Source: Desulfobaccales bacterium
Lineage (GTDB): Bacteria; Desulfobacterota; Desulfobaccia; Desulfobaccales; 0-14-0-80-60-11
Assembly (NCBI GenBank): GCA_030694005.1
Contig: JAUXZG010000084.1
Coordinates: 1 to 61,759, forward strand
DNA: 61,759 nt
Direction of reading: 5' to 3'
Shown in pieces: positions 3,829-42,202 of the stretch (position 1 is its first letter; each line of letters starts with the position of its first letter). The translations under genes and the position numbers were made by a program. The notes under the pieces are model-generated. The model was not told the origin of the DNA and searched no databases. It worked only from the letters and a program-made list of their open reading frames with translations.

Positions 3829-3838
3829 TAACCCTCCC

Positions 3839-19312: not shown

Positions 19313-20170
19313 TTACGCCACCAGGGCCAGATTTTGGAGCAATGGCCGGGGGTCCACCAGGTGGCGGACAAACCACTCCTCGTAATCCTTGGCGCCCAGG
19401 GCCAGGGCCAGAACTTCCGAAAAGTGGAAGACGGGAAGCCTCTCCCTGGAGGTGCAACGGATCTCCAGATTGAGCTGGCACATGGCACAGGCGGTGACCA
19501 GACAATGGGCCTTGGCAGCCACGGCGCTGTCGATGATTTCGTTGACCAGGGGGGTGACTATTTCCGGGTCGGTGGCGGAAAGAAAGGAGCCGCAACAGCG
19601 ATGCGTATAAGCCCCGATGATGGGCTCGGCCCCCAAGGCCACCAGAATATCTTCCATTTCGCCCTGGTAATATTTTTCCTTTTCCAGATCCGGGGGGCGA
19701 AACACGGCACAGCCGTAATAGGGCACAAACTTAAGACCCGTAAGGCTCCGTTTGGCGCTCTGTTTCAGGCGGTCCAATCCGAACCGCACCAGCACCTCCA
19801 TAAAGTGCATGATTTTCAAGTCCAAATTGATCGGCCGTCCCCAACGCTCTTCTAAAGAACGGTGGGTTTCCGGATCCTTCTTGAGACAGACCTTGGCATG
19901 CCGCAAATAATGCAGGCAGCGGGGGCACATGGCCACCAGGGGTCTGCCGGCCGGGGCCAGGGACAGGTTGCGGGCCGCCATTCCCAGGCTTAAATTCTTG
20001 CACATGGTTTGCGCGGAGGAGGAGCCGCAGCAGTTCCAGTCGGAAAGTTCGATGAGGTTCAGGCCCAATATTTTGGCAGACTGCATCAGGGACATATTGG
20101 CTTCCGCGGCCGTAGTGGCCATGGAGCAGCCCGGGAAGTATGAGAAGTCAATCTGGTGGTGAAGGCTCAT
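19313..20170 (-). CDS. hdrB: Heterodisulfide reductase subunit B-like (two CCG domains)
   Basis: 285-aa ORF with FPGCS...NCCGSSSA...YYGCAV...CCGSFL...CAMCQLNLE. Confidence 0.88.
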   Translation of the reverse strand: MSLHHQIDFSYFPGCSMATTAAEANMSLMQSAKILGLNLIELSDWNCCGSSSAQTMCKNLSLGMAARNLSLAPAGRPLVAMCPRCLHYLRHAKVCLKKDPETHRSLEERWGRPINLDLKIMHFMEVLVRFGLDRLKQSAKRSLTGLKFVPYYGCAVFRPPDLEKEKYYQGEMEDILVALGAEPIIGAYTHRCCGSFLSATDPEIVTPLVNEIIDSAVAAKAHCLVTACAMCQLNLEIRCTSRERLPVFHFSEVLALALGAKDYEEWFVRHLVDPRPLLQNLALVA

Positions 20171-20763
20171 TTAGACTCCCTCCAGTAGCACTTGAAAAGG
20201 TCGCCGATCTCTTCTTGGGCTTGCACCCGTGACGGCCTCAGGTCCAGCTTGCGCTTGGCCAGCATCTTGAGACCCACGTCCAGATCACTGAGCCAGCGTC
20301 GGGTTTTCACCTTGTAGCGCCACATGATCCCCAGTTTATGGGCGCGACCGTAACGTTCCAGGGACCTGAGCACTTCCTCGTGGAAGTCAAGGATGTTGGG
20401 CTTGGCTATGGCTACCCCTTCCTCCACCGCCATCAGGCGCAAGGTATCCATCACGGCCGCCATGTCGATGCCCATGGGGCACTGGCTGGAACAGGTATGA
20501 CAGCCTACGCAGATCCAGATGGTTTTACATCTCAGGACTTCCTCCCGCATGCCGAACTGCAGCAGGCGCAGGACCAGGTTGGGAGGATAATCCATGGCCC
20601 GGATGAAAGGACAGCCATTGGCGCAGGCGTGGCACTGATAACACCGATTTAGGTCGGTGCCGCTTTTCTCGATAACCTCGGCCGCCAGAAAACCCCGAGG
20701 TTGGCCAACTTCAATAACCGTCCTGGGGGCGGCCGGTTTTGCCAGGGGGGTGGTTTGGCTCAT
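20167..20763 (-). CDS. hdrC: Heterodisulfide reductase subunit C-like (2x[4Fe-4S])
   Basis: 198-aa ORF with CYQCHACANGCP and CVGCHTCSSQCP. It overlaps hdrB by 4 nt. Confidence 0.85.
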   Translation of the reverse strand: MSQTTPLAKPAAPRTVIEVGQPRGFLAAEVIEKSGTDLNRCYQCHACANGCPFIRAMDYPPNLVLRLLQFGMREEVLRCKTIWICVGCHTCSSQCPMGIDMAAVMDTLRLMAVEEGVAIAKPNILDFHEEVLRSLERYGRAHKLGIMWRYKVKTRRWLSDLDVGLKMLAKRKLDLRPSRVQAQEEIGDLFKCYWRESK

Positions 20764-21619: not shown

Positions 21620-22807
21620 TTATCCTCCTGCGGTCGCCGCCATTTTTTTCCGCCACAGCGGAGAAAAGGACCGCAGTTTTTCCACGGCGGGGGGAAGATG
21701 TTCCAGCAAGTAGTGCACGTCTTCTTCCCGGTTGTCGCGATTCAGCGTAAAGACGATGGACCCCTGGGCCAGATCAGGGCGGATACCGATGGCGCACAGC
21801 ACCGGCGAGACCTTCAAGGCCTTGGAGGCGCAGGCCGAACCCGTGTTGGCATAAATCCCCTGGCGGTTCAGCAGGAAGATCAGGGCTTCGCCTTCGATGC
21901 CCTCAAAACAGAAACTGGCGTGGCCCGGCAGCCTCTCTACCTGATGACCGGTATAAATGAGGTTGGAAATCCCCTCCGTAATCCCGGCAACCAGGAGATG
22001 CCGCAGTCTGGTGAGGTGAGGGACCAGATGGGCCAATTCTTCCCGGGCCAACTCAGCCGCCTTACCCAGACCCACGATGCCGGGCACGTTTTCGGTGCCC
22101 CCCCGCCGGCCGTTTTCCTGGATGCCGCCGTGAATCTGGGGGACCAGGCGCAGCTTGCGGCGAAAATACAGGGCCCCAGTGCCCTTGGGGGCGCCCAGGA
22201 CGGGGCCCGAAAGAGTCAGCAAATCCACGCCTAATTCCTTTACCTCCACCGAGACACTACCCACCGTGGCCACGGCGTCGGTGTGGAAAAGGATTCCCGC
22301 GGCCCGACAAATCGCCGCCAACTCCGCGATGGGTTGGATGGTGCCGATCTCGTTGCTGCCATGCTGGATAGACACCATGACCGTGGCCGGAGTGAGGCTC
22401 CTCTTAAGACGTTCCGGTTCCACCTGGCCGTAACGGTTGACAGGCAGAAAGGTCACTTCAAAATCATGGAACTTTTCCAGGAACCTCGCGGCATTCAGCA
22501 CCGAGTGGTGTTCGATGGCCGAAACCACCAGATGTCTGCCCTTTTTGATATTGGCCAGCGCCGCTCCCTTGACGGCCAGGTTATTGGCTTCGGCGCCGGA
22601 TGAGGTAAAGACTAGCTCCTCGGTTTGGGCGCCGATAAGGTGGGCCACCTTGGTCCTTTGCTCTTCCAAAACCTCTTTGATCTCGGCGCCCAGGTCGTAA
22701 ACCGCGGAGGGATTCCCGAAACGCTCGGTGAAATAGGGAAGCATGGCCTCCAGAACTTCCCGGCGTACGGGGGTCGCGGCCGCATTATCCAAATATACTC
22801 GTTTCAT
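21620..22807 (-). CDS. nifS: Cysteine desulfurase (NifS/IscS class)
   Basis: 395-aa ORF with VYLDNAAATP, SAIEHHSV, a PLP-Lys region, and the active-site SGSACAS. Confidence 0.92.
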   Translation of the reverse strand: MKRVYLDNAAATPVRREVLEAMLPYFTERFGNPSAVYDLGAEIKEVLEEQRTKVAHLIGAQTEELVFTSSGAEANNLAVKGAALANIKKGRHLVVSAIEHHSVLNAARFLEKFHDFEVTFLPVNRYGQVEPERLKRSLTPATVMVSIQHGSNEIGTIQPIAELAAICRAAGILFHTDAVATVGSVSVEVKELGVDLLTLSGPVLGAPKGTGALYFRRKLRLVPQIHGGIQENGRRGGTENVPGIVGLGKAAELAREELAHLVPHLTRLRHLLVAGITEGISNLIYTGHQVERLPGHASFCFEGIEGEALIFLLNRQGIYANTGSACASKALKVSPVLCAIGIRPDLAQGSIVFTLNRDNREEDVHYLLEHLPPAVEKLRSFSPLWRKKMAATAGG

Positions 22808-22816
22808 AACCCCGCC

Positions 22817-23071
22817 TCAGTGGACCTTCTTGATGTAAAGCTTATAGTAATCTTCGTCTTCAGCTTCACAGATACCGACGAACTCTTGCCCATGCTTGGC
22901 GCACCAGGCCGGAATGTCTTCCAGGGCCCCGTCATAGTCGGTCAAGATTTCCAACACCTGCCCCTGTTTTAAATCCTTGATCAACTCGGTGGGCTCCAGA
23001 AGATGCATGGGACACACGCGGTAGACTAAATCCGCGGTGGCATCGGCCTTACATTCTTTTAAGAACTTCAT
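22817..23071 (-). CDS. TusA/SirA-like sulfur carrier protein
   Basis: 84-aa ORF with VCPMHLL (a CPxP-type motif) and VLEILTDYDGALEDIP. Confidence 0.75.
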   Translation of the reverse strand: MKFLKECKADATADLVYRVCPMHLLEPTELIKDLKQGQVLEILTDYDGALEDIPAWCAKHGQEFVGICEAEDEDYYKLYIKKVH

Positions 23072-23149
23072 TATGTTGTCCTCACAGGTCTAAGGAAGCC
23101 CCTGGCATCCTTATTTACAGTATTCCGATATTATATATTGTTTAAGTAT

Positions 23150-23816: not shown

Positions 23817-25037
23817 TCAGCCTGCCTTTGGGGCTTCCCACGGCCGTTCTTTCAGGGGCCTGAAGGCGTACCCGGAGTCAAGGGAAGGAAGGGCCGCCAC
23901 GGCCTCGGTCAATAAAAAACTCCCTTCTTTAATCCACGCTTTCAAGATCAGGGCAATTTCCCGGGCCCGGACATAGGAGGACAGCCCGGCCGTGACCACC
24001 TTCTTCTGGCCCACCGTAATTTCTCCGGTTTTGAGTTGGGCCACCGTTACTTCGGCCAGGATTTCCGGTTTGCAGTTGGGGTAGGACTCGCTGTAGTCCA
24101 CCACCGGGGCAATGATGTCGGCGTCGCTAACCGAGGTGAACCGGAGGATCTCCTCATCCAGGATGGGGATGGGAATGCCGAGCCCCAAGGTCACCGTCAC
24201 CCCATATCCGGTAAAAGACGCGCCCCTGAGCCACCTGGAGCTCATTTTTTTCAGGTCCCCGGTAACCGCCAGGGTGCCGGCGCCCATTTTCGGCACTCCC
24301 AGCTCCGTGCGGCGCACCCCGGGATTATGCTGGGTGCCGTGGCTCACCACATAGCCGGTGTTGCCGCCCAGGAAGATCCTGGTGCCCACCCCTATGGTTT
24401 TATACAGGGGATCATTAAGGAGAGGACTGAGCCGGCCCGCGGTGCAATAGTTGGCGTTGCGCATCTTGGGCTGGAGAACTCCCATGTAGGTATAGATCAC
24501 TCGATCCGAGAGGTTCACGGCCACGTTGTAGTTCTGATAGGCGTTGCGCATGTTAAAGAGAACCGCCTCGTTCATATCCTCCAGGCGGATCCAGGTGTCC
24601 AGAATTTTGCGGGGATAACAGTCGGTGCCGTAAGTAGTGGCGGTAAGCCGCACATCCTTTCCCGAGACCAGGTCTTCTATAATGTGGCCGCCGCCATAAG
24701 CAAATTTCCCCGGGAACACCTTGTTGCGGGGATCGTCTTCGGGAAGCGCGGTGGCGCCCAGGAAAAGGTCCACCGCGGCGAAGCCGGCATAGGCCGGGAC
24801 CTCGTTTATGGTGACCCGGCCGCCGCCCATCTTGATCCGGGGATTGGCGTGACCCACATTGAAATAGGCGCCGGAGGAGCACATGGGGGCAAAGGTGCCG
24901 GTGGTGACCACATCCACCTCTTTGGCGGCCTGTTTGACACCCTTTTGCTTTACCACCTCAATGATCTCTTCGGCCGTGAAGACTACGGCCCGGCCCTGTC
25001 TGATCTTCTCGTTGATTTCGTTGATTGTCTTGGCCAT
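23817..25037 (-). CDS. COG1900 (DUF39) homocysteine biosynthesis-type protein
   Basis: 406-aa ORF with VVFTAEEIIE...VDVVTTGTFAPMCSSGAYFN. It is paired with a downstream NIL-ferredoxin gene, as in the methanogen MA1821/MA1822 arrangement. Confidence 0.8.
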   Translation of the reverse strand: MAKTINEINEKIRQGRAVVFTAEEIIEVVKQKGVKQAAKEVDVVTTGTFAPMCSSGAYFNVGHANPRIKMGGGRVTINEVPAYAGFAAVDLFLGATALPEDDPRNKVFPGKFAYGGGHIIEDLVSGKDVRLTATTYGTDCYPRKILDTWIRLEDMNEAVLFNMRNAYQNYNVAVNLSDRVIYTYMGVLQPKMRNANYCTAGRLSPLLNDPLYKTIGVGTRIFLGGNTGYVVSHGTQHNPGVRRTELGVPKMGAGTLAVTGDLKKMSSRWLRGASFTGYGVTVTLGLGIPIPILDEEILRFTSVSDADIIAPVVDYSESYPNCKPEILAEVTVAQLKTGEITVGQKKVVTAGLSSYVRAREIALILKAWIKEGSFLLTEAVAALPSLDSGYAFRPLKERPWEAPKAG

Positions 25038-25074
25038 GAGTAACTCCCTTGATACTGATTAACTTCTCCTGCGC

Positions 25075-26166
25075 CTAGCAACTCGGTTTTCCGGTCAAAG
25101 TTAACATGCGCTTAAGAGCGATCTTTGCCTCGGTTTTTATGGGTTCGGACACCGTGACTATATTAGCCTCCCCCGGGCTTTCCAGGGTGGCCAGGAGGTT
25201 TTCCAGATTGATTCTGAACATATTGGGACACAAGGAGTAATGCAGGTCCAGGACCTCTTTGTCCGGGTGTTCCAGGGCCAGCCGGTGCACCAGGTTGATT
25301 TCCGTGCCCACAATGATCGTGGTTTGAGGGGCTGCCCTGGCCACATAGTCTACGATGAAGCCGGTGGAACCGCAGGCGTCCGCCAGGGCCACCACTTCCT
25401 GGGTACACTCCGGATGCACCACCATCTTGGCCTGGGGGAAGGCCTCCTTCATTGCCAAGACCTGATCAACCTGAAAGCGGGTATGGACATGGCAATAACC
25501 ATCCCACAGGATCAGCCTGGCCCGGCGGATAGTTTCAGGACGGTTCCCGCCCAGCGGCCGGTCCGGGTCCCAGACGATCATGTCCTCGGGTTTGAGACCC
25601 AGTTGATTCCCGGTATTGCGGCCCAGGTGCTGGTCGGGGAAGAAAAACACCTTGGCAGCTCTTCCCAAGCCCCACCGCAGCGCCGCCAGGGCGTTGGCGG
25701 AGGTGCAGACCGTGCCTCCGTGCCGCCCGCAAAAGGCCTTGAGCCGGGCATCCGAATTCATGTACACCACGGGAACGATGCTTCCCTCTCCGGCGATGTC
25801 GGTCAGCTCCTCCCAGGCCGTTTCCACGGTATCCAGGGCCGCCATGTCCGCCATCAGGCACCCGGCTCTAGGGTTGGGGATTTGTACGGTTTGCTGTGGT
25901 TGGGCGAGAATTGCGGCGCTTTCCGCCATGAAATGCACACCGCAAAAAACGATGAACCGGGCGTCACAGTTCGCCGCGGCCTTCTGGGACAGGCCGAAAG
26001 AATCACCTCGATAATCCCCCAAGGCCACGATCTCTTTCCGTTGATAATGGTGAGTCAAGATCAGGAGCTCTTTCCCCAGGGCCTCCTTTTTGGCGCGGAT
26101 CTCTTCTCCCAGCTCAGCTTCATCCAGAGAGACCTGCCCTTCATCTCGCCGATAGGCCCGGTTCAT
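25075..26166 (-). CDS. nadA: Quinolinate synthase
   Basis: Track ORF 25075-26214. The start is set at ATG 26166 (MNRAYRR). It has LILTHHYQRKEIVALGDYRGDSFGLS, FCGVHFMAESAAIL, and HPEC. Confidence 0.85.
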   Translation of the reverse strand: MNRAYRRDEGQVSLDEAELGEEIRAKKEALGKELLILTHHYQRKEIVALGDYRGDSFGLSQKAAANCDARFIVFCGVHFMAESAAILAQPQQTVQIPNPRAGCLMADMAALDTVETAWEELTDIAGEGSIVPVVYMNSDARLKAFCGRHGGTVCTSANALAALRWGLGRAAKVFFFPDQHLGRNTGNQLGLKPEDMIVWDPDRPLGGNRPETIRRARLILWDGYCHVHTRFQVDQVLAMKEAFPQAKMVVHPECTQEVVALADACGSTGFIVDYVARAAPQTTIIVGTEINLVHRLALEHPDKEVLDLHYSLCPNMFRINLENLLATLESPGEANIVTVSEPIKTEAKIALKRMLTLTGKPSC

Positions 26167-26242
26167 TAAAGTCTTCCTTTGGAAAGGGGATTGTCCGCCC
26201 CATCCCAAAACCATGAGTCGCCTTAAAATTAATACTACACTT

Positions 26243-26265
26243 ATATATACAATTATTGTATATAT
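26243..26265. promoter_or_regulatory. 23-bp perfect palindrome in the divergent nadA / cysE control region
   Basis: ATATATACAAT-T-ATTGTATATAT has perfect 11-bp arms. A related half-site, TTATACAAATAAT, follows immediately. Confidence 0.55.
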
Positions 26266-26388
26266 TATACAAATAATTTATCTGTCAAGAAAAATGGTGG
26301 GGACGGTTTCTTGCCCCAAAAGGAACCTCCAAGTGACCCAGCAGGTTAGTGCCTGCCGGTTGCCGGGTTAAGGAGAGGGGAAGCCAAA

Positions 26389-27348
26389 ATGGACAAATTG
26401 GGTGCTCTGCAAGTGGAGCGATGCAAAACCGAGGTTAAGGCCGATCTAGACTCTCGGCAGGAAATTCCAGAGATTGTTGATAGGCTAATAAAATCATGCC
26501 GGGGGCAGGAAGGCTTCGACCACGTGGGCCCGGAACCCATTCCCTCCCGGGAAGCGGTGATAGATCTTATTCATCGGGGCTGTCGTCTCCTTTACCCGGG
26601 CTACTTTAATCGCACCCGGGTGGACGAGACTAACCTGGGCTTTTACCTGGGCCAGGAAGCCGTGGCTCTTTTTGAAGATCTTTCCCAGCAAATTACCCTG
26701 TCCCTCCGCCATGAGTGTCTGCGCTATGGCCTGCCTTGCATCCATTGCCAGGCTCGCGGTCAGGAAGAGGCGATCCGCCTCATGCGGGAACTTCCCCGTC
26801 TCAGAGCCCTCCTGGCCAAGGATGTCCGCGCCGCTTATGAGGGGGACCCGGCAGCCAAAGGCTATGACGAAATCATCTTCTGCTATCCGGGGCTGTTCGC
26901 GGTAACCGTTTACCGGCTGGCTCACCAGCTTTTAAAGCAAGAGGTGCCTCTGCTGCCGCGCATCATGACCGAATACGCCCACAGTCAGACCGGCATAGAC
27001 ATCCACCCCGGAGCCCGCATCGGGGAGAGTTTCTTCATGGATCACGGCACCGGGGTGGTGATTGGGGAGACCACGGAAATCGGTGACCGGGTGCGCATAT
27101 ACCAGGGGGTGACCCTGGGGGCCCTGTCCCTTCCCAGGGAGGCGGTGGACTCCCTGAGGGGACAAAAAAGGCACCCCACCGTCCAGGATGACGTGATCAT
27201 CTATGCCGGAGCCACCATCCTGGGGGGAGAGGCGGTGATCGGCGCCCGTTCAGTCATCGGCGGCAATGTGTGGATTACGGAGTCGGTGCCTCCCGACACC
27301 AAGGTCTTCCTGAAAAAGCCCGAGTTGATTTATAAAGGCTCAAGCTGA
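26389..27348 (+). CDS. cysE: Serine O-acetyltransferase (long N-terminal form)
   Basis: 319-aa ORF with DIHPGARIGESFFMDHGTGVVIGETTEIGDRVRIYQGVTLG hexapeptide repeats. Confidence 0.9.
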   Translation: MDKLGALQVERCKTEVKADLDSRQEIPEIVDRLIKSCRGQEGFDHVGPEPIPSREAVIDLIHRGCRLLYPGYFNRTRVDETNLGFYLGQEAVALFEDLSQQITLSLRHECLRYGLPCIHCQARGQEEAIRLMRELPRLRALLAKDVRAAYEGDPAAKGYDEIIFCYPGLFAVTVYRLAHQLLKQEVPLLPRIMTEYAHSQTGIDIHPGARIGESFFMDHGTGVVIGETTEIGDRVRIYQGVTLGALSLPREAVDSLRGQKRHPTVQDDVIIYAGATILGGEAVIGARSVIGGNVWITESVPPDTKVFLKKPELIYKGSS

Positions 27349-27469
27349 AGACCCGGGGAAGGATTCAGGGGTAATGTGCCCGTGGGGATTGGGGCTGCAT
27401 CTGTGGACCTATGGCTGACTTCTAAGTGCTGACCGTGGAAAGCTAATGGCGACGGAAGTGAGGGGAGGA

Positions 27470-28399
27470 ATGGACCGAATTTTTGCCGATATTCTGCACA
27501 CCGTGGGTTCCACGCCCCTGGTTCGCTTGCATGCGGTAACCAAGGGGCTTAAAGCCACCATCCTGGCCAAGCTGGAGATGCATAACCCCTTGGGGAGCGT
27601 CAAAGACCGCATCGGCGTATCCATGATCCAGGCAGCCGAAACCCAGGGCCTGATTCACCGCAACACCTTGATTGTGGAGCCCACCAGCGGCAATACGGGT
27701 ATCTCCCTGGCCTTTGTGTGCGCTGCCAAAAAATATCGCCTGGTTCTGACCATGCCGGATACCATGAGTGTGGAGAGAAGAAAGTTGTTGAAACACTTGG
27801 GCGCCGAATTAGTCCTCACCCCAGGGGCAGAGGGCATGACCGGGGCCCTAAACCGGGCCCGAGAAATACTGGCTAATACTAAAGGCGCCTATATGCCCAA
27901 CCAATTTGCCAATCCCGCCAATCCCGAGGTTCACCGCCGGACCACCGCCCAGGAAATCTGGCGGGCCACCGGGGGAGGCATCGATTTTTTGGTGGCCGGA
28001 GTGGGCACGGGAGGTACCATAACCGGGGTGGCCGAAGTAATTAAACGGCGCAAGCCCTCCTTTAAAGCGGTGGCCGTGGAACCCGCGGAATCTCCGGTGC
28101 TATCCGGAGGTCAGCCTGGACCTCATAAGATTCAGGGAATAGGGGCGGGGTTCATTCCCGAGGTATTAAATACCAGGATTATTGAGGAAATCATTACCGT
28201 CAGCAGCGATCAGGCCCTGGCAACCGCCAGAGAGGTGGCCAAACAAGAAGGCATCCTTTGCGGCATCTCCTCTGGGGCCGCGGCCTATGCCGCCCTGGAA
28301 TTAGCCAGACGCCCCGAGAACCACGGCAAGCAGATCGTGGTAATCTTCCCCAGCACCGGGGAACGATATTTGAGCACGGAGCTCTTCCAAGACCAGTAA
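27470..28399 (+). CDS. cysK: Cysteine synthase A (O-acetylserine sulfhydrylase)
   Basis: Track ORF 27446-28399. The start is set at ATG 27470 (GAGGGGAGG Shine-Dalgarno). It has [19 protein letters not shown] and GTGGTITG. Confidence 0.92.
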
Positions 28400-28883
28400 A
28401 GCAGGATAGAGGAGGGTTTTCCCAGGTACATCCCTAACCTTTGCCCGGCAAGTTTCCCTTCCCATCGGGGGCTACTTCAAGAATAGTAAATCCACGAGCC
28501 CCCTGCCCCGGCAATCATCAAGGGTTTAAGGGAAACCTTGTAGGAGGGGGTACCCCGCCCCTGAATGGTCTGCCTGGCTTAATGAGGACGCTTATCTCGG
28601 AGGAAAATTCAGTTGCGGCTTGCCGGCTGCTAGGGCCCCCGAGATCGGTGACCTCAGGCTGGCAGAAATTGATAAAATTGTTGCTAAGAGCTTGGGGAGT
28701 ATTTGCAGATCTCAGCCTTTAGTCGGCCTGTCCTGGGTTTGTCTGGTTAGATTTTAAGTTTCTTTAATTTATTAAAATTATTAAAAATATTTTCCCGTTG
28801 GCGGCAATTTCCCCAGGAGCGCAGTAATCCACCCGCCGCTCCGGTCGGTGCGGTCAGCGATGCCGGAGCCCAAAGGAGGCCAG

Positions 28884-29060
28884 TTATCTCAGACGTTGAT
28901 CAATATTGCCGGGGCCGCCACACTCCGGCAGGTAGCAACTCACATCCTTAAACTTACATGGCACCCGGCACGACGGGCAGAGGTCCGGCGGACACGACGC
29001 CTGGAGGGTAAAGGTGCAATTACCGCACCTCCAGAACATTTGCGCTGCTGCTTGAGTCAT
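28884..29060 (-). CDS. 58-aa Cys-rich zinc-ribbon / rubredoxin-like small protein
   Basis: ATG 29060 lies 8 nt after AAGGAGA and encodes MTQAAAQMFWRCGNCTFTLQASCPPDLCPSCRVPCKFKDVSCYLPECGGPGNIDQRLR. It is just below the 60-aa track cutoff. Confidence 0.6.
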   Translation of the reverse strand: MTQAAAQMFWRCGNCTFTLQASCPPDLCPSCRVPCKFKDVSCYLPECGGPGNIDQRLR

Positions 29061-29397
29061 GGCGCTGGTCTCCTTAGCTTTTATTGGTTACCGCCTTCTC
29101 AAACGATGTCGGGTATAATGCTCCTGTAGGGATCTTCATCCGGAGCATTTCCACAATCATGTGGCGTCCTGCCAAGGGCCCCATGTCTGACCGCGATGGT
29201 CGGATAGGCCAATAAAGCAAGGTCTCCATAGGGGTTGCTAGGGTCTTAAGTTTCTATGGTGCTGATTTTTCCCCGTGCTTTCCCGGAAGGGAAATTATAT
29301 ACACTAATATGATATATATAAGCTTAATAATATTTATAAAATAAAATGTCAAGGTTAAAAATAAGAGAAGGCTAATTTCTCCCTACCCCTGGTCTAG

Positions 29398-30348
29398 ATG
29401 GGAAAGAAGGCGATGGTTTCAGAAAAAAGACAGCTCAAAGAGGTCATCCCGGCTTCTTCCGCCAGCCTGGTTAACAACTCTCGTTGGGTAGGGATGATGT
29501 GTCTGTTTATCGCCACCCTGGCCTTATCGCTTGGTAGCCAGGCAATTTCTACAACCGCCGGTCAGGAAATAAACCTGGCCCCAGAGGGCAAAATAATGGC
29601 TCCATCTAAGGCGAAACCGGTGGCGAAGGCCCTAATCCCGCCGCTTGACGCCACCATCCCCTCGAAAACGGCCACGGCCACCTTCGCCCTTGGCTGATTC
29701 TGGAGTCCGGAAGCCCGGTTCGGGCTTCTCAAAGGCGTAATTCGCACCCGGGTGGGGTATTCCGGCGGTACCACCGAGAACCCCACCTATGACAATCTGG
29801 GCGATCATACTGAATCTATCCAGATAGACTATGATCCCACGGTGATCACTTACGAGCAGCTTTTGGATATCTTCTGGGCCAGCCACCACCCGGGGGTGAG
29901 AGCCGGGTCGCGGCAATACTTGATCGCGGTGTTTTATCATCACGAGGAACAGAAAAGGCTGGCTGGGGAAAGCAGAGACCGAGTGGCGGAGCAGCTCCAA
30001 GGCCAGATCTGCACCGAGATCCTGCCTGCCAAGGAGTTTTACTTAGCCGAAGATTATCATCAGAAGTATTATCTGCGACTGGTGCCGGATCTCATTAAGG
30101 AGTTCACCCTGATATATCCGAACCTTCGGGACCTGGTTGACTCCACGGCCGCGGCCCGAGCCAACGGCTATGCTGCCGGCTACCGCAACCCCGCGGCTCT
30201 CCAGGCGGAACTGGCCAGCTTAGGCCTATCCCCGGCGGGACAGAAACAGCTTCAGTCTCTGGTGACGGCCTTTCTACTGGAGTCTCCCTCCCGAAGCTGT
30301 CCAATCTCTAAAGTTGACCGGGAAGTTGGGAGGGAAAATAGGAAATGA
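29398..30348 (+). CDS. msrA: Peptide methionine sulfoxide reductase MsrA with selenocysteine at the catalytic position; N-terminal signal/anchor and C-terminal extension
   Basis: Track ORFs 29398-29697 and 29752-30348 share one frame and are separated only by TGA 29695-29697. The joined sequence reads [39 protein letters not shown], which matches the MsrA GCFWG...GYxGG...NPTY signature. Confidence 0.85.
29710..29728 (+). promoter_or_regulatory. Candidate SECIS hairpin for msrA
   Basis: GAAGCCCG-GUU-CGGGCUUC is a perfect 8-bp stem (or 7 bp with a GGUUC loop). It starts 12 nt after the UGA. Confidence 0.6.
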
Positions 30349-30415
30349 TATTCAACTAAATATTCACCAAAGCCCGTTTAAAAAATGCCAACCAAGGCTA
30401 ACCCCTTGAAATATC

Positions 30416-30493
30416 TGGCGCGCCCGAGAGGATTCGAACCTCCGACACACGGATTCGTAGTCCGTTGCTCTATCCAGACTGAGCTACGGGCGC
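30416..30493 (-). tRNA. tRNA-Arg (anticodon ACG), CCA encoded
   Basis: GCGCCCG TA GCTC AGTCTGGATA GAGC A ACGGA CTACGAA TCCGT GTGTC GGAGG TTCGAAT CCTCT CGGGCGC G CCA. All four stems are perfect. Confidence 0.95.
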
Positions 30494-30599
30494 GGGTGAA
30501 ATTTAGCGGTTGTGGGGAATTGGCCCCGAAGTTTTGATTAATATTTTTTATAACCCCTGGGGCCTGAAAGGTCAACTCCTTATCCACCCGGGACCAGCG

Positions 30600-30760
30600 C
30601 CACCCTGCCCCCTTCCCCAAAACCGCCTCAAAAACCCCTTCTAGATTTTTGGGGTGGGAAAGCGGGGCCGAAGGCCCCGCCTTACCCACCCCCCTTAAAG
30701 GGTTGGGAGGGGGGTTTGGGGGGAGGGCAGGGAGCCGCGCTCCCTGGCCCTCCCCCCAAA
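30600..30760. repeat. Cluster of G/C-tract palindromic repeats
   Basis: Hairpin 1: GGGGTGGGaaaGCGGGGCCgaaGGCCCCGCcttaCCCACCCC (30651-30692). Hairpin 2: GGGAGGGCAGGGAGC..GCTCCCTGGCCCTCCC (30721-30754). The CCCCTTAAAGGGTTGGGAGGGG motif is shared with the 60.4-kb cluster. Confidence 0.7.
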
Positions 30761-32572: not shown

Positions 32573-33529
32573 TTAGCGCGCCGCCCGGAAATTGGGTTTA
32601 GCGCGGTAAATGTTGGCGCTGCCCTGGTTCACCATGGCATTGACCCGGCCCCGCTGCTGGGGAGTGAATTGGCCGACGGCCCGCATGGGGGCTTGGGCGG
32701 CTCTAATGTGACCCTGCTGATTTCCCAGCCGGTTAAACCCGGCCGGGGTGGGTTGTCCGGTCCGCACCCCTTGATAGCTGCGGTGTTGTTGGTTAGCCTC
32801 CCGCCAGTGGGGGCCGTTTTGGCCTCCCCAGTAAGGGTGAGCCTGCCCCGGCATACCGGGGCGCTGTCCCCAGGATGGATGCGGCTGCCGCCAGGCGTTG
32901 CCCGGGGCGGCCACTTGGTTATTGTGTTCGGCGCGGTAGATGTGCCGGCCGCTGCGGTCCAGCATGCCATTGAGCCGGGCCCGTTCACGAGGGTCCAGAC
33001 GGCCGTCGGCCCGCATGCGGGCTTCCGCGGCCTGGATGCGAGCCTGCTCCCTTTCCAGGCGATTAAATTCCTGAGGGGTCAGTTGTCCAGACTGGAGCCC
33101 CTGGTTGATACGATTCTGTTGGTTGGCTTCCCGCCAGTCAATGCTGCCCTGGGGGCCCCAGTTCGGGTGAGGTCCTTGCCGATTGACGGCCGGGGCCGCC
33201 ACCTGGTTATTGTGTTCAGCGCGGTAAATGTCCCGGCTGCTGCGGTCCAGCCTGGCATTGAGCCGGGCCCGCTCCCGGGGGTCCAGTTGGCCACCGGCTT
33301 TCATCCGGGCCTCTGCGCCCCGGATGCGAGCCTGCTCCTCTTCCAGGCGATTAAATTCCCGGGGAGTCAGTTGTCCGGATTGGACCCCTTCATAGATCCG
33401 CTCCTGTTGGTGGTCTTCCCGGCCATCGATGCCGGGGCTGAAGGTCTCTGCCAGGGCTGGCGAGCCGCCCAAGATGAGGCCGCCTACTACCAGTGCGGTA
33501 ACCACGCCTGAGTTCTTTCTCCTCATCAA
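32573..33529 (-). CDS. Secreted protein made of three tandem ~95-aa repeats
   Basis: 318-aa ORF. Signal peptide: MMRRKNSGVVTALVVGGLILGGSPALA. The repeat unit QQxRIxxGxQSGQLTPxEFNRLExEQARIxxAEARMxAxGxLDPRERARLNxxLDRSxRxIYRAEHNNQVAAP occurs three times; the third copy is degenerate. Confidence 0.8.
   Translation of the reverse strand: MMRRKNSGVVTALVVGGLILGGSPALAETFSPGIDGREDHQQERIYEGVQSGQLTPREFNRLEEEQARIRGAEARMKAGGQLDPRERARLNARLDRSSRDIYRAEHNNQVAAPAVNRQGPHPNWGPQGSIDWREANQQNRINQGLQSGQLTPQEFNRLEREQARIQAAEARMRADGRLDPRERARLNGMLDRSGRHIYRAEHNNQVAAPGNAWRQPHPSWGQRPGMPGQAHPYWGGQNGPHWREANQQHRSYQGVRTGQPTPAGFNRLGNQQGHIRAAQAPMRAVGQFTPQQRGRVNAMVNQGSANIYRAKPNFRAAR
32600..33440. repeat. Intragenic tandem DNA repeat (period about 288 nt, 3 copies)
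   Basis: For example, TTATTGTGTTCGGCGCGGTAGATGTGCCGGCCGCTGCGGTCCAGC at about 32920 against TTATTGTGTTCAGCGCGGTAAATGTCCCGGCTGCTGCGGTCCAGC at about 33207. Confidence 0.75.
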
Positions 33530-36898: not shown

Positions 36899-39061
36899 TC
36901 AGGCCCCACCGGCAACCTCGCGGATAAACCGGTAGATCTCCGGAGAGACCGAAGTGAAGCGGACGGCGGCTTCGTTAAGGTTGTCGGCCCCGGGCTTCAC
37001 GGAGATGATCTTGGCATAGATTTTCCCAGGGATTTCTTGCCCGGTGTCATCCAGTAAATGGAGGCGGACATCTTCCCATTCTTCCAGGTCTCCCTCAAAG
37101 GCCACCGTGGCGGCGATTTCCGACAGATGGGTGATCCAGGCGGCCCCGGAAGCACCGGTGACGACCTTTTCTTTAATCCGGTAGAGGTGGATGGGGAGCT
37201 TCTGCGCCAGGGGGATGAGGGTTTCCGACCTCTCTTTAAGTCTGAGTTGGTAAGGCCCCTTAAGACCCTGCACCTCATAAATGGTGACCACTCCGGACAC
37301 GCCTTTCATCTCCGCCTGGATAATTTCGCCCACCTCTACCAGGTCTTTGATCTGTTCGTAGGTGGAGGAACTGATGAGCACCTGGCCGCCCACGGCATAA
37401 GAGTCGATCCTGGCGGTGAAGTTTACGTGGGAGCCCACCACGCTGTATTTGGTGCGCCGCTCCGAGCCGATGTTGCCCACCACCACTTCGCCGGTGTTCA
37501 CCGAGACGCCCATCTCCAGATGCGGCAGGCCATCGGCGGCGTTCAAGGCGTTGATCTCTTCCATGGCGATTTGCATCTGCAGGGCACAGGCCACCGCCCG
37601 GGCGGGATGGTCTTCCAGGGGCTCCGGGGCGCCGAAAAAGGCCAGAATCCCGTCGCCGATAATCTCATCGATGATGGCCCTGCTGTCTAAAAGAATCTCG
37701 ATCATCTTGCCCAGGTAACGGTTCAGAAAGGTGATCACCGCCTCCGGTTTCATATCCGCGGTGATGGCGGTGAAGCCCCTTAAGTCGGACATGAGGATGG
37801 TGACTTCCCGGATCTCGCCCCCCATTTCCAGGGCATCTTTGGATTCCAAAAGCCTTTTCACCACTTCTTGGGTGACATAACGGCCGAAGGTGTCCCGGAT
37901 GAAATCCCGTTTTTCCATATATTCCGTGAGTTGTTGGCCTAACTGGTTGAAGGAGTGGGCCAGGTGGACGATCTCTTTGCTGCCGGTCTCAGGCACCGCC
38001 ACCGAAAAGTCACCGTGACCGATGGCAGAGGTCTTCTCGGCCAGAATTTTCAGCGGCCGGGCGATGCTTCTGGAAATATAAATGATCATTAAGGCCAAAA
38101 ACCCCAACCCCAGTAGGGCCATAAGGATAAGTTTGGTGCTCAACCGGCGGGCGTCGGCGAACAATTCGTCTTCCGGAAAGATCACCGCCAGGGTCCAACC
38201 CAGGGAAGGCAGGGGGGCATAATACAGCCGGGATTTTTTTCCGGAAACAAAGTCCAGGAGGGGGACAAAGCCTTCCCCGCCGCGGATCATGTCCCGGCCG
38301 AGCCGGCGCAGGTGGGGGTCGCTCTTGGCCTCGGCGATGCTGAAAATACTTTCCCGCATGATCAACCCGCGCTCGGGATGGGTGACGAACACCCCGTTTT
38401 GGGAGATGAGAAAGGCGTACCCGGTCTGATAGAATTTCACCCCGGCCACCAGGTCTTTGAGCCACATCAGGGAAATATCGCAGGTGACCACCCCCCGGAA
38501 CTTTTTGCCGCCGGAAACTTTCCGATAGAAGGGCACGGAAAAAGTGGACATGATGATGTTGCCGCCCCCTTCATCATAGTAAGGTTCACTCCAGATGGGG
38601 CGGCCTAATTCCTGGGGGATTTGATACCAATCCGTGCCGAAATAGCGATAAGAGTCACTCCCCAAAATTTCCAGCTTGATCCCACCGTCGTGTCGAGAGG
38701 CATAGGGGGCGAAATAATATTTTTTAAGGTCAAAGGCGTAGGGTTGAAAGGCGACACAGACCCCGAACAGTTCGGGGTTGTCGCCCACCATGACCTGTAT
38801 CAATTGGCACAGTTCCGGGCGGACCAAAGGATGTTGTTCGATGGTGCGGGCCAGGCTGCGGGGGATTTTCTCGGCCCCATGCAGAACTACTTCAATTTTG
38901 TAGGCCGTGGCCCGGGTCAGGTTCCTGGCGTTCTCTGCCGCCTCATCTTCCATCCCCTGCGTAGAAGCGCGGTAGTTATAGGTGAACACGGCCAGAAAAA
39001 TGATGGCGGTGCCGGAGAGAATCAAAATAATGAGTTTAGTAGCCAGGCTTCTATTTTTCAT
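36899..39061 (-). CDS. Cache-sensor / HAMP / class III nucleotide cyclase with a conserved C-terminal domain (paralog 1)
   Basis: Track ORF 36899-39094. The start is set at ATG 39061 (MKNRSLATKLIILILSG). It has a periplasmic Cache-like region, HAMP, and a cyclase core (ILMSDLRGFT...IDEIIGDGILAFFGAP...VNTGEVVVGNIGS...YSVVGSHVNFTARI). Confidence 0.88.
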   Translation of the reverse strand: MKNRSLATKLIILILSGTAIIFLAVFTYNYRASTQGMEDEAAENARNLTRATAYKIEVVLHGAEKIPRSLARTIEQHPLVRPELCQLIQVMVGDNPELFGVCVAFQPYAFDLKKYYFAPYASRHDGGIKLEILGSDSYRYFGTDWYQIPQELGRPIWSEPYYDEGGGNIIMSTFSVPFYRKVSGGKKFRGVVTCDISLMWLKDLVAGVKFYQTGYAFLISQNGVFVTHPERGLIMRESIFSIAEAKSDPHLRRLGRDMIRGGEGFVPLLDFVSGKKSRLYYAPLPSLGWTLAVIFPEDELFADARRLSTKLILMALLGLGFLALMIIYISRSIARPLKILAEKTSAIGHGDFSVAVPETGSKEIVHLAHSFNQLGQQLTEYMEKRDFIRDTFGRYVTQEVVKRLLESKDALEMGGEIREVTILMSDLRGFTAITADMKPEAVITFLNRYLGKMIEILLDSRAIIDEIIGDGILAFFGAPEPLEDHPARAVACALQMQIAMEEINALNAADGLPHLEMGVSVNTGEVVVGNIGSERRTKYSVVGSHVNFTARIDSYAVGGQVLISSSTYEQIKDLVEVGEIIQAEMKGVSGVVTIYEVQGLKGPYQLRLKERSETLIPLAQKLPIHLYRIKEKVVTGASGAAWITHLSEIAATVAFEGDLEEWEDVRLHLLDDTGQEIPGKIYAKIISVKPGADNLNEAAVRFTSVSPEIYRFIREVAGGA

Positions 39062-40037
39062 GGGAGGCCAGACAGTTAACGAAAAATTCGGCAAAAGGGG
39101 GAATCTTCTTAATCAGACCGTTTTTCCTGAGCTCTTGCGCCGCCGGGTCATACGCCTCTGCCTGAAGAGTCCCCATGGGGAGGTTGCTTCCGGAAGGCAA
39201 GATGATGTCCTGCATGCGTGCCAGCATCCATTTCTGGTGGACCCTCTCGGTGGCGACATTGGCGGCGTTGACATATTTCATGACAATATCCAGGGCTTCT
39301 TCAGGATGGGCAAAGGCATACTGCCAGCCTGCAATGCTTGCCTGGACAAAGCTGCGGCAAAGTTCGGGTCGGTTCTTATAGGTATCCTCCAGGCAATAAA
39401 TGCCGTCTTCGGGAAAGTTCAGGCCATGGTCGGCCATGAAAAAAGTGGTCAGTTCCTCCGGATTCATCCCGGCATTGAGGATCAGGTGGTACTCGTTGTA
39501 CCACATAGCGGAGGCCACCTCCACGCCACCTCGCAAAAACAGGTTCAAGGTGGCTGATTGGGGGATGGTTTTCACGGCAAGCTGGTATTTTTGGAAAAAG
39601 GCCCGGGGCTGACCCTGAAAGTCCCCTCCCCAAAGCCCCACCTTCTTGCCGTTAATATCTTGGGGGGTGTTGATGCCGCCGGCCTTCTTGGCCACCAGCA
39701 TCAGGGCCGACCGTTGCACCAATTGGCCGATATTGACCAGCTTGACTCCCTGCGCCCGCTTAATAATCCCCGTGGTAAGCAGCCTGGTCCCGAAATCGGC
39801 CTTCCCTTGCGCCAGCAATTCGGACGGCGGCCGATCAGGCCCCCCTCTAAGGATCCGCACGTCCAGGTTGTGCTGCCGGTAGAAACCTTTTTCATAAGCC
39901 ACATAATAGCCCGCGAACTGGGATTGCGGCTGCCATTGGGGGATGAAAGAAACCTTTTTAAGGTCGGCTTCCTGAGCAAATCCGAGGGGCGGAAGCAATA
40001 GAAAAAGGCTGAGGCTGAAACTTAAAAGGCGCGTCAT
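39051..40037 (-). CDS. Orphan periplasmic substrate-binding protein (NMT1/THI5, NitT/TauT-like)
   Basis: 328-aa ORF with a signal peptide (MTRLLSFSLSLFLLLPPLGFAQ) and FIPQWQPQSQFAGYYVAYEKGFY. No permease or ATPase gene is adjacent. Confidence 0.8.
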   Translation of the reverse strand: MTRLLSFSLSLFLLLPPLGFAQEADLKKVSFIPQWQPQSQFAGYYVAYEKGFYRQHNLDVRILRGGPDRPPSELLAQGKADFGTRLLTTGIIKRAQGVKLVNIGQLVQRSALMLVAKKAGGINTPQDINGKKVGLWGGDFQGQPRAFFQKYQLAVKTIPQSATLNLFLRGGVEVASAMWYNEYHLILNAGMNPEELTTFFMADHGLNFPEDGIYCLEDTYKNRPELCRSFVQASIAGWQYAFAHPEEALDIVMKYVNAANVATERVHQKWMLARMQDIILPSGSNLPMGTLQAEAYDPAAQELRKNGLIKKIPPFAEFFVNCLASHEK

Positions 40038-40177: not shown

Positions 40178-42139
40178 CTAAGCGTTGCCTCTTGCCTGGC
40201 GCATAATCTGGTGGGCCTCCCGGGAGATGGAGGTGAAGCGGACGGCGGCTTCGTGAAGGTTGTCGCCCAGAGGCTTCACAGAAATGACCTTACCGTAAAT
40301 CTTCCCCGGGATTTCGGCCAGGCTCTCATCCAGCAGGTGGATGCGGACATCTTCCCACTCCTTAAGTTCCCCCTCATAGACGACCGTGGCCCCAATCTCC
40401 GAAAGATGGGTGATCCAGGCGGCGCCGGTAGCGCCGGTGATAATCTTTTCGTGAATCCGGCAGAGGTGGATGTTGATCTTTTCCTTAAGGGGGATGAGGG
40501 TCTCAGACCTTTCTTTGAGTTTGATGTTATAAGGTCCTTTGATAGCATGAACATCATAAAGAGTGGCGGCCCCGGGAACGCCTTTCATCTCCACTTCGAG
40601 GACATCCCCCACCTCGACGAGGTCCTTAACTTTGGCATAGGTGGAGGCGCTGATGAGCACTTGCCCTCCCACCGAGGAAGATTCGGCTCTGGCGGTGAAG
40701 TTGACCGGGGATCCAATAACGCTGTATTTGGTTCTCTTTTCGGAACCGATGTTGCCCACCACCACCGAGCCGGTATTCACGCCGATGCCCATTTCCAGAT
40801 GGGGCAGGCCGTCGGCTTCGTTTAAGAAATTGATCTCATCCATGGCCGCCTGCATCTCCAGAGCGCAGGCCACGGCCCGCACCGGATGGTCTTCTTGGGG
40901 TTCCGGGGCGCCAAAGAAGGCCAGGAGGCCGTCGCCGACGATCTCGTCGATAACCGCATGATAATCAACCAGAATTTCGATCATTTTTCCTAAATAGCGG
41001 TTGAGAAAGATTATGACCTCCTCCGGAGCCATATCCGCGGTCAAGGCAGTAAAACCTCGAAGGTCCGACATGAGGATGGAAACTTCTCTGGTCTCACCCC
41101 CCAATTCCAGGGCTTCTTTGGATTCCAGGAGCTTTTTGACCACCTCCTGGGTGACATAGCGGCCAAAAGTGTCCCGGATGAAGTCCCGTTTAGCGATATA
41201 ATCCGTGAGCTGGTCGCCCAGTTGGTTGAAAGAATGCGCCAGATGCAGGATCTCTTTGGCGCCTTTCTCCGGCACCGCCACGGCAAAGTTCCCTTCTCCC
41301 ACCTGCCTCACCCCATTTCGCAGGCGCACCAGGGGGCGCGAAATGGTCGCGGCAAACCAGACGGCTGATAACCCGCCCAGCAGTGAGAAAAATATGGCCC
41401 CGATTAAACCGGCCAGGTGCACTTTTCGGTCAATTGCGGCAGAAGCCTCTTCCATAGACTCCTTGGCTTTGGCCATTATTCCCTGGGAGGCTTTTTTGAT
41501 CTCCTCTTGGGTTGGTACAAAAAACTCGTCGATGTTTACTATGGCCCCCACGATGAACGGGGTCCCGGGAACATGGACTCTGGCCGAAAACCTTCTCCGG
41601 TTTTTGCCGTCTTTGTCAAAGAAAGTGTAGTAGCCCGTGACATTGTCAGTGGTAAGGGAACGCTTGATCAACTTCCAGGTTTCCGGGTATTCTTTCTGCC
41701 ATTCTAATTTAGCCTGGTTTTGACCTTCGACCTGCTTATCGGGGTGGAAAATGATCTCGCCACCCTTGTCATATAAATCAGTGTACCCCGCCACCCCTTC
41801 CACCGTGGAGATGTCCTGGATAGCTATCTTTCTCAAGTTTTTATCCTGGCGCATTTGGGCATAATTATAGGTTTTTTTTCCTTTCAACAGATAAGCCAGC
41901 TCCCGGGCTACATCTTCGGCCTTGTCCTTGACGATGTATTCTCCATTTTTGGTCAGAACCTCTTCAGCCACCTGAACGTTGGCGGCGGTAACCTCTTGCA
42001 CCGCATTTTGGGCGATTTCCAAGTTATGGACGGCCATTTTGTGTTCGACCCAATCGGTTAACATTAACATGCCGAGAATCAGCAGCGCGATGAGGGCCGC
42101 ATAGGAAAGGCTCAGGTAGGTGCGAATACTCAGACTCAT
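40178..42139 (-). CDS. Sensor / HAMP / class III nucleotide cyclase with a conserved C-terminal domain (paralog 2)
   Basis: Track ORF 40178-42181. An ATG at 42139 is likely the true start. From HAMP to the C-terminus it is about 75% identical by eye to the 36899-39061 protein, but its periplasmic sensor differs. Confidence 0.88.
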   Translation of the reverse strand: MSLSIRTYLSLSYAALIALLILGMLMLTDWVEHKMAVHNLEIAQNAVQEVTAANVQVAEEVLTKNGEYIVKDKAEDVARELAYLLKGKKTYNYAQMRQDKNLRKIAIQDISTVEGVAGYTDLYDKGGEIIFHPDKQVEGQNQAKLEWQKEYPETWKLIKRSLTTDNVTGYYTFFDKDGKNRRRFSARVHVPGTPFIVGAIVNIDEFFVPTQEEIKKASQGIMAKAKESMEEASAAIDRKVHLAGLIGAIFFSLLGGLSAVWFAATISRPLVRLRNGVRQVGEGNFAVAVPEKGAKEILHLAHSFNQLGDQLTDYIAKRDFIRDTFGRYVTQEVVKKLLESKEALELGGETREVSILMSDLRGFTALTADMAPEEVIIFLNRYLGKMIEILVDYHAVIDEIVGDGLLAFFGAPEPQEDHPVRAVACALEMQAAMDEINFLNEADGLPHLEMGIGVNTGSVVVGNIGSEKRTKYSVIGSPVNFTARAESSSVGGQVLISASTYAKVKDLVEVGDVLEVEMKGVPGAATLYDVHAIKGPYNIKLKERSETLIPLKEKINIHLCRIHEKIITGATGAAWITHLSEIGATVVYEGELKEWEDVRIHLLDESLAEIPGKIYGKVISVKPLGDNLHEAAVRFTSISREAHQIMRQARGNA

Positions 42140-42202
42140 GGAGGTCTCCAAGACCTGTCGTCTTAATAAATTGTTTCCCAAAGGGAAAATTCGCCCGGGC
42201 GA

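Follow-up and report, generated by a model that had tools for sequence, protein, structure and literature searches.

Selenocysteine (Sec)-containing methionine sulfoxide reductase A (MsrA) of bacteria is a catalogued selenoprotein family with a GUFWG/H motif (PMC13188914, PMC1976440, PMC1794560). One of its members, CoMsrA from Clostridium (Alkaliphilus) oremlandii, is a 209-residue enzyme with a native Sec and no Cys (1-Cys type); it is recycled by glutaredoxin, and its helical domain (residues 145-209) is required to keep the active site formed (PMC4333827). Its structures are available under PDB entries 4LWJ, 4LWK, 4LWL, 4LWM, 4U66 and 7C13 (PMC4333827, PMC4479559). MsrA activity outside the cytoplasm has been described for Cys-type enzymes, namely MsrAB2 of Streptococcus pneumoniae, which works with Etrx1/2 and CcdA (PMC3914529), MsrAB of S. 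gordonii (PMC7034828), the periplasmic MsrAB of Haemophilus influenzae (PMC9404787) and PilB of Neisseria. In-frame alternative initiation that changes the localisation of the product is a recognised, if sparsely proven, phenomenon in bacteria (PMC13515050). Here, we describe an msrA gene on the plus strand (29398-30348) of a 61,759-nucleotide stretch of DNA from a Desulfobaccales bacterium (contig JAUXZG010000084.1, positions 1 to 61,759, assembly GCA_030694005.1). This whole stretch is called the window below.

We consider it likely that the gene encodes a functional two-domain selenoprotein methionine-S-sulfoxide reductase of the C. oremlandii type, in which UGA is recoded as Sec100, Cys301 is a candidate resolving residue and two proteoforms are likely to be made. 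Like CoMsrA, the window protein has Sec in a G-U-F-W motif and joins a PMSR domain to a helical domain of the PF20939 type. On the one hand, CoMsrA has 15 residues before Sec (approximately residue 16) and no signal, whereas the window protein has 99 residues before Sec, with a predicted signal or anchor as well as a putative internal start. On the other hand, CoMsrA is a 1-Cys type enzyme devoid of Cys, whereas the mature part of the window protein has two, C205 and C301, the latter in a Cys-Pro tail. Judged by its sequence, the window gene belongs to the Sec-MsrA family and yet departs from CoMsrA in two traits, as it is not of the 1-Cys type and has a long N-terminal extension.

The msrA reading frame comprises 316 codons including Sec100 and ends with TGA at 30346-30348. 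An in-frame TAG (29395-29397) directly precedes ATG 29398; therefore, no msrA start is possible 5' of this ATG. The single internal TGA lies at 29695-29697, in the context TATATFALG-TGA-FWSPEARF. When Cys was put at the TGA, the protein matched PF01625 (PMSR) over residues 93-226 (E=2.4e-41, 141.9 bits against a cutoff of 23.7) and the NCBIfam msrA model TIGR00401 (128.5 bits, cutoff 108.1), and the catalytic domain was assigned to 29674-30075 from the Pfam match and the alignment. In the MsrA alignment, the UGA stands in the column of the catalytic Cys (GUFWS against GCFWG), which is filled by Cys in other homologues. The residues Y131, E139 and Y220-H221 are present in the window protein, and Y131, E139 and Y220 are invariant in the homologue alignment; presumably, these three are the counterparts of Y82, E94 and Y134 of the E. 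coli enzyme, the Tyr/Glu/Tyr set that binds the substrate. A pre-catalytic conserved segment with the family consensus IPPIDxxAPxxxETATFALG is located in frame directly 5' of the UGA (29635-29694). Standard open reading frame (ORF) calling divides the gene into a 99-residue N-terminal ORF and a 198-residue ORF from GTG 29752. An independent assembly (contig L088, run SRR29054609) has 2 differences in 1111 aligned bases and the same TGA; therefore, a sequencing error is excluded. This contig is too nearly identical to inform on selection at the N-terminus.

A preliminary description of this DNA had placed the TGA at the catalytic Cys position of MsrA, with the frame and the homology continuing past it without interruption. 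Both claims were confirmed, the former by the alignment and by the TGA of the relatives, and the latter by the Pfam and TIGR00401 matches obtained after Cys substitution. The relatives are the 80 closest loci from a search in which each species was represented by one genome; this ranking favours relatives of the Sec protein, so that the frequencies are not unbiased. The catalytic codon is TGA in 78 of these 80 loci, which are spread over about ten phyla (Desulfobacterota, Nitrospirota, Chloroflexota, Bacillota, Planctomycetota, Actinobacteria, Acidobacteriota, Synergistota and others). The same description had called Sec-MsrA rare, a view that these best relatives do not bear out, TGA forms being common in anaerobes. 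The protein is conserved on both flanks of the TGA, as all loci share the consensus given above on the upstream side and MsrA sequence on the downstream side. One related locus (L065) comes from the Olavius delta-symbiont Delta 4, and Sec-MsrA has been reported from such symbiont communities. By the similarity of its AsnRS, the organism stands close to MAGs of the Desulfobaccales/Syntrophobacterales, and such lineages have large selenoproteomes (PMC1794560, PMC1976440).

The window holds a second gene with an in-frame TGA. This HdrA-like gene (minus strand, 25 to approximately 900) carries the TGA at 738-736, after which it runs into a ferredoxin/NuoE-like C-terminal part (called ORF 25-606), and a 1020-residue HdrA paralogue (52531-55593, minus strand) has Cys at the corresponding position, where it reads TNDCSMCILSPKLVE. 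Because the TGA of msrA is kept with conserved flanks, the hairpin described below covaries and a second UGA gene is found in the window, we consider the insertion of Sec at UGA 29695 very probable. A global reassignment of TGA was rejected because TGA is the ordinary stop for 7 of the 24 long ORFs in the window.

The putative selenocysteine insertion sequence (SECIS) is a hairpin at 29709-29729, which begins 11 nucleotides past the UGA and consists of a 9-bp stem (29709-29717 with 29721-29729) and a GUU loop (29718-29720). Its core, GAAGCCCG-GUU-CGGGCUUC at 29710-29728, is the perfect 8-bp hairpin already noted in the preliminary description, and the RNAfold structure is longer by one closing G.U pair. 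The stability of the hairpin alone is not significant, and therefore covariation was used as the argument instead. We aligned the 48 nucleotides from the UGA in the 78 loci, with the UGA as positions 1-3. The loop positions G24, U25 and U26 are invariant in all 78 sequences, and the core of the stem is formed between columns 18-23 and columns 27-32, with two-sided changes at pairs 18-32 (CG/AU/UA/UG), 19-31 (UA/GC) and 23-27 (GC/AU). There were 48 double-change cells against 16.5 expected, and the covariation score was 0.208 against 0.091 for shuffles, a value reached by none of 500 shuffles and higher than that of slid registers, the sequences being related and codon-constrained. It is this comparison with relatives, with its compensatory changes and invariant GUU loop, that gives the hairpin its weight. 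All Sec forms have G as the synonymous third base of the Arg/Gln codon from which G24 derives, whereas C, T or A stands there in several Cys forms whose stem has decayed (L029, L084, L085).

Bacterial SECIS models have a stem-loop that begins within about 11 nucleotides 3' of the UGA and a conserved G (and U) in the apical loop at 16-37 nucleotides from the UGA, as does the window hairpin. The SECIS sequence of E. coli fdhF was confirmed inside fdhF in 5,419 E. coli genomes, and the GGUC loop of its fold places G and U at +23 and +24, one nucleotide apart from the G-U at +24/+25 of the window hairpin. Both are stem-loops directly 3' of the UGA within the coding sequence; however, they differ in sequence and stem, and no bulged U is evident in the window hairpin. 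Taken together, it is strongly supported by comparative sequence evidence that this putative element acts as the SECIS for UGA 29695.

Two further hairpin observations were made beside this. Three relatives with TGC at the catalytic codon (L082, 5205-5252; L083, 5205-5252; L086, 676-723) have a full SECIS-like stem. Those of L082 and L083 are without the invariant loop G (CGC/CGT), and both genes are directly preceded by msrB. All three stems resemble relics of SECIS elements from a recent Sec-to-Cys conversion. The HdrA-like gene has a 7-bp hairpin with an AGGU loop 15 nucleotides past its UGA (loop 22 nucleotides past), with a fold z-score of about 0.

The N-terminal part of the window protein contains a hydrophobic segment, WVGMMCLFIATLALSLGSQAI (29485-29547, residues 30-50), which is predicted to be a signal peptide or an N-in/C-out signal anchor. 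Its 21 residues are uncharged, with a Kyte-Doolittle mean of 2.31 over 15 residues, and the net charges of its flanks, +4 on the N-terminal side (a long n-region) and -1 on the C-terminal side, agree with the positive-inside rule. A candidate signal cleavage site lies between AIS and TT in SQAISTTAGQE. The most likely start of the long form is Met6 (29413-29415), with a Shine-Dalgarno (SD) duplex of -4.2 kcal/mol against -2.2 kcal/mol at ATG 29398, and on L088 the gene caller starts a 94-residue N-terminal fragment at the ATG that matches 29413.

The relatives are in accordance with a translated signal. A strongly hydrophobic 15-mer occurs in the MsrA frame of 79% of the loci, compared with 3-4% in the other two frames, and the median open length of the MsrA frame 5' of codon -33 is 53 codons, compared with 27 and 13 in the others. 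An in-frame start is followed by a PROSITE-like lipoprotein box in 25 of 77 Sec loci, MKSSNPYAWLGTVLPVLALMALLTAC being one example, and a few loci have twin-arginine motifs. In the relatives, starts located 5' of the hydrophobic segment are enriched in SD sequences (60% reach -6 kcal/mol or lower, compared with 15% for control windows). The hydrophobic signal or anchor of the preliminary description is thereby supported as a prediction, both by the in-frame segment and by the lipoboxes of the relatives. Its conclusion that the product is an extracytoplasmic selenoenzyme may stand only in part: the predicted signal or anchor is conserved, but so is the putative internal start M67, and a cytoplasmic form is probably made too. 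We hold it to be reasonably likely that the long form is extracytoplasmic.

This putative internal start consists of GAGGG (29584-29588), a 7-nucleotide spacer and ATG 29596-29598 (Met67), 33 codons 5' of Sec. Its SD energy is -6.3 kcal/mol, and the predicted product has 250 residues with Sec at residue 34. A Met 18-45 codons 5' of Sec is found in 65 of the 78 loci, most commonly at -33. The SD energy at this Met averages -6.9 kcal/mol, compared with -2.9 kcal/mol for coding controls, and reaches -6 kcal/mol or lower in 65% of cases, compared with 13.5%. In the 51 loci that also have an upstream signal, AGGA, GGAG and GAGG cores cluster at -15 to -9 from the internal ATG and hardly occur in the rest of the linker or further 3'. 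Relatives that have no signal (L017, L029, L042, L062, L067 and L069) start at this internal Met. When the 77 Sec loci were sorted by both features, 51 had a signal and an internal Met, 12 a signal only, 13 a Met only and 1 neither.

On these comparisons, we lean slightly towards the use of Met67 as a start. The simplest reading, and a likely one, is that the one gene would give two proteoforms, one exported or anchored and one of 250 residues in the cytoplasm. It resembles the N-terminal proteoforms reviewed for other bacteria (PMC13515050) in that one gene has two in-frame starts and the products are predicted to localise differently; dual initiation in the window msrA is a prediction from sequence. 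In the literature searched, we found no published report of alternative-initiation proteoforms for MsrA or for a selenoprotein. Signal peptides, lipoprotein forms and alternative starts of Sec-MsrA are unmentioned in the selenoproteome surveys that were read (PMC13188914, PMC1976440, PMC1794560), and a term search of the 2026 selenoproteome review returned no 'signal peptide', 'periplasm' or 'lipoprotein' (PMC13188914).

Compared with the extracytoplasmic Cys-type Msr systems, the window gene is alike in that an N-terminal signal or anchor puts MsrA activity outside the membrane for the repair of envelope proteins, which is a prediction in our case. Those systems have Cys, an MsrB and/or thioredoxin fusion and a dedicated CcdA/DsbD-thioredoxin supply, whereas the window gene has Sec, no fusion and no linked partner. 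Their electron-supply genes are often encoded nearby. Domain searches of the window protein gave the PMSR and helical domains only, and no MsrB or thioredoxin fusion. The neighbours of msrA are cysE, cysK, an ORF of 58 residues rich in Cys, tRNA-Arg and a DUF4337-like gene, the protein names being read by eye from the translations. When the ORFs within about 5 kb on either side of 78 loci were clustered by BLASTP, conservation was confined to msrA, to antisense ORFs that are spurious and to an OmpR-like regulator, the latter in 17 loci.

The C-terminal part of the window protein is a helical domain (30073-30282, residues 226-295) homologous to MsrA_helical (PF20939) of the C. oremlandii Sec-MsrA. 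The best phmmer match among solved structures was 4LWJ (E=2.4e-57), which aligned with query residues 90-295 over 206 residues, the helical domain included, and the helical domain alone showed 39% identity with CoMsrA in BLASTP (E=3e-9). The PF20939 match of the window protein is below threshold (18.0 against 23.7 bits, E=0.0025), whereas relatives exceed the cutoff. A novel C-terminal domain was considered and rejected, as this region is the PF20939 helical domain, as in 4LWJ. By these matches, the window gene is a genuine member of the known Sec-MsrA structural type that is easily mis-called. The extension had earlier been given as about 70 residues; it measures about 90 beyond the Pfam PMSR match. 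The single Cys that had been reported in it was found as described, in SRSCPIS, as residue 301 (30298-30300). This Cys stands in a Cys-Pro motif within a 21-residue tail, SPSRSCPISKVDREVGRENRK (30283-30345). Of 77 Sec relatives, 22 have a Cys in the tail, which in 17 cases is part of a Cys-Pro motif. We entertain with reserve the possibility that Cys301 resolves the intermediate by forming a selenenylsulfide with Sec100.

For the reaction and the fate of the two forms, we propose the following steps. Considering its conservation, the hairpin at 29709-29729, with its GUU loop placed about 21 nucleotides past the UGA, would be bound by SelB carrying Sec-tRNA, and UGA 29695 would be read as Sec. 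Sec100 would attack Met-S-sulfoxide to give a selenenic acid, which the flexible tail with Cys301 may resolve as a selenenylsulfide, and a thiol-disulfide oxidoreductase would then reduce the latter. The long form, made from 29413 (or 29398), would be directed to the Sec translocon by the hydrophobic segment, so that its catalytic domain, whether anchored or released by cleavage, would lie outside the cytoplasmic membrane. The form of 250 residues made from the internal SD and ATG (29584-29598) would remain in the cytoplasm.

Several observations weigh against this picture. With respect to selenocysteine, no selA, selB, selD or tRNA-Sec gene was found within the 61.8-kb window by a tRNA scan and an ORF survey; therefore, the machinery is only inferred. 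The local fold of the hairpin has z = -0.93 against shuffles, which is unremarkable in GC-rich sequence, and no SECIS or other relevant Rfam family was found on 29300-30400, either at the gathering threshold or at E<=10. Since the Cys forms L082, L083 and L086 retain the hairpin, the stem alone cannot separate Sec from Cys forms. If the TGA were a genuine stop, msrA would be a split or decaying gene for a membrane peptide of 94-99 residues and perhaps a dead C-terminal product from GTG 29752; otherwise, near-cognate suppression would put Trp or Cys at the codon without Sec machinery. The silence of the window on that machinery is in line with this, and gene callers split the gene in the same way (P0001; L088). 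However, it would leave unexplained why 78 loci from many phyla have TGA precisely at the catalytic codon, between two stretches conserved as protein, why the hairpin covaries around an invariant loop, and why a second gene with UGA for Cys is present in the same window. Furthermore, the called GTG 'start' falls within the invariant RTRVGY strand of the fold. We therefore regard a stop or Sec-independent suppression as very improbable.

With respect to localisation, the window protein has no lipobox, its sole N-terminal Cys (C35) lying within the h-region, and the SD at the upstream start 29413 is only modest (-4.2 kcal/mol). No linked CcdA-, DsbD- or thioredoxin-like partner was found in the window or around the 78 related loci, and the tail Cys, present in a mere 22 of 77 relatives, is absent from the C. 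oremlandii enzyme. The protein could accordingly be an ordinary cytoplasmic Sec-MsrA like that of C. oremlandii, started at Met67 (29596), with an upstream hydrophobic region that is not usefully translated. The missing lipobox and reductant gene fit with this, as do the internal SD (-6.3 kcal/mol), which beats those of both upstream ATGs, and the NCBI models of some relatives (P0038, P0085), which begin at the internal Met. It is opposed by the open upstream frame with its signal-like n-h-c order, by the hydrophobicity of that frame in 79% of relatives against 3-4% off frame, by the SD enrichment of upstream starts across the family, and by the TAG that abuts ATG 29398, so that the open frame begins at that ATG. 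We consider a solely cytoplasmic enzyme quite improbable. Conversely, the exported or anchored form may be the only one, and the internal ATG and its SD-like sequence, unused, may be left over from a cytoplasmic ancestor or may simply result from a linker rich in Lys, Glu and Gly. This agrees with the 12 Sec relatives that have a signal and no internal Met, and with the purine-rich nature of linkers behind lipoboxes; yet the SD cores are sharply peaked at -15 to -9 from the ATG with almost none elsewhere in the linker, their energies are far stronger than those of coding-region controls, and the position of the internal Met is the start of the signal-less relatives. An exported form alone is therefore unlikely in our view, although less so than a cytoplasmic form alone, and the preferred reading remains that of two proteoforms.

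Sec-MsrA is already established, and the bare finding would be one more member, which gene callers wrongly divide in two. What is new is a prediction for the family as a whole, namely export signals in the majority of its members, along with an internal start that is conserved. Most close relatives of the cytoplasmic CoMsrA carry export or lipoprotein signals, and the majority of those keep the internal ribosome-binding site. We tentatively extend this to the proposal that one gene may serve two compartments in about two-thirds of the family, across many anaerobic phyla. An exported, anchored or lipoprotein Sec-MsrA would repair the envelope beside a cytoplasmic Sec-MsrA, and the exported form would use a selenenylsulfide of its Cys-Pro tail and be recycled by some periplasmic reductant. 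If this is true, strict anaerobes would spend selenium on the repair of methionine oxidation outside the cytoplasm, and the question would arise of which periplasmic reductant acts on the selenenic acid or selenenylsulfide, there being no linked CcdA/thioredoxin partner. It would also represent a conserved and easily testable case of bacterial dual targeting by alternative translation initiation, and the first extracytoplasmic selenoenzyme of the Msr class of the Sec-translocon or lipoprotein type.

Public protein sets distort Sec-msrA genes in three ways: the protein is truncated and begins at V-[VI]-RTRVGY, has 'W' at the Sec position or starts at the internal Met. Four JGI proteins (P0002, P0009, P0021 and P0031) show 'W' at the catalytic position; the codon of P0002 (locus L001, 447-449) was checked and is TGA, a code-4 gene model having been used. 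Such 'W'-bearing entries hide selenoproteins. Another protein (P0015, NCBI, on a 922-kb contig) carries Ser in place of the catalytic residue (ALG-S-FWEPD) together with a Cys tail at the C-terminus; this may be an MsrA that is inactive or has been repurposed, or else a mistake in the sequence record. MsrB-MsrA fusions whose MsrA part belongs to the helical-domain subfamily were seen at locus L039 (approximately 3250-3973) and in proteins P0005 and P0119; in the L039 fusion, the catalytic codon of MsrA is TGA. The NCBIfam model NF041383 (VPGUxxT family thioredoxin-like (seleno)protein, type 2) matched the MsrA region weakly with model positions 143-231 (E=1e-9), and this selenoprotein family seems to contain an MsrA-like segment.

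Directly 5' of msrA lies a strongly AT-rich stretch (29290-29375) in a window that otherwise has 57% GC, which is a plausible promoter region. A consensus scan of 28400-30600 for promoters and terminators gave counts no higher than in shuffles, with no sigma-70 match at 29290-29375. Between cysK and msrA, the 58-residue Cys-rich ORF (28884-29060, minus strand) has a CxxC...CxxC arrangement, is rubredoxin- or zinc-ribbon-like and is also called on L088. Further 5', a sulfur-metabolism cluster (21620-23089, minus strand; 23817-28399) contains, by names read by eye, TusA-like, NifS-like cysteine desulfurase, COG1900-like, nadA, cysE and cysK genes, and HdrB/C-like genes named in the same way are located at 19313-20763. 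On the other side of msrA, a secreted-looking protein of 318 residues (32573-33529, minus strand) has three repeats of approximately 90 residues (QSGQLTPxEFNRLExEQARI...RLDPRERARLN...IYRAEHNNQVAAP). Two paralogous sensor proteins with near-identical HAMP/cyclase-like C-terminal halves are encoded at 36899-39094 and 40178-42181 (minus strand), with a periplasmic-binding-protein-like gene between them.

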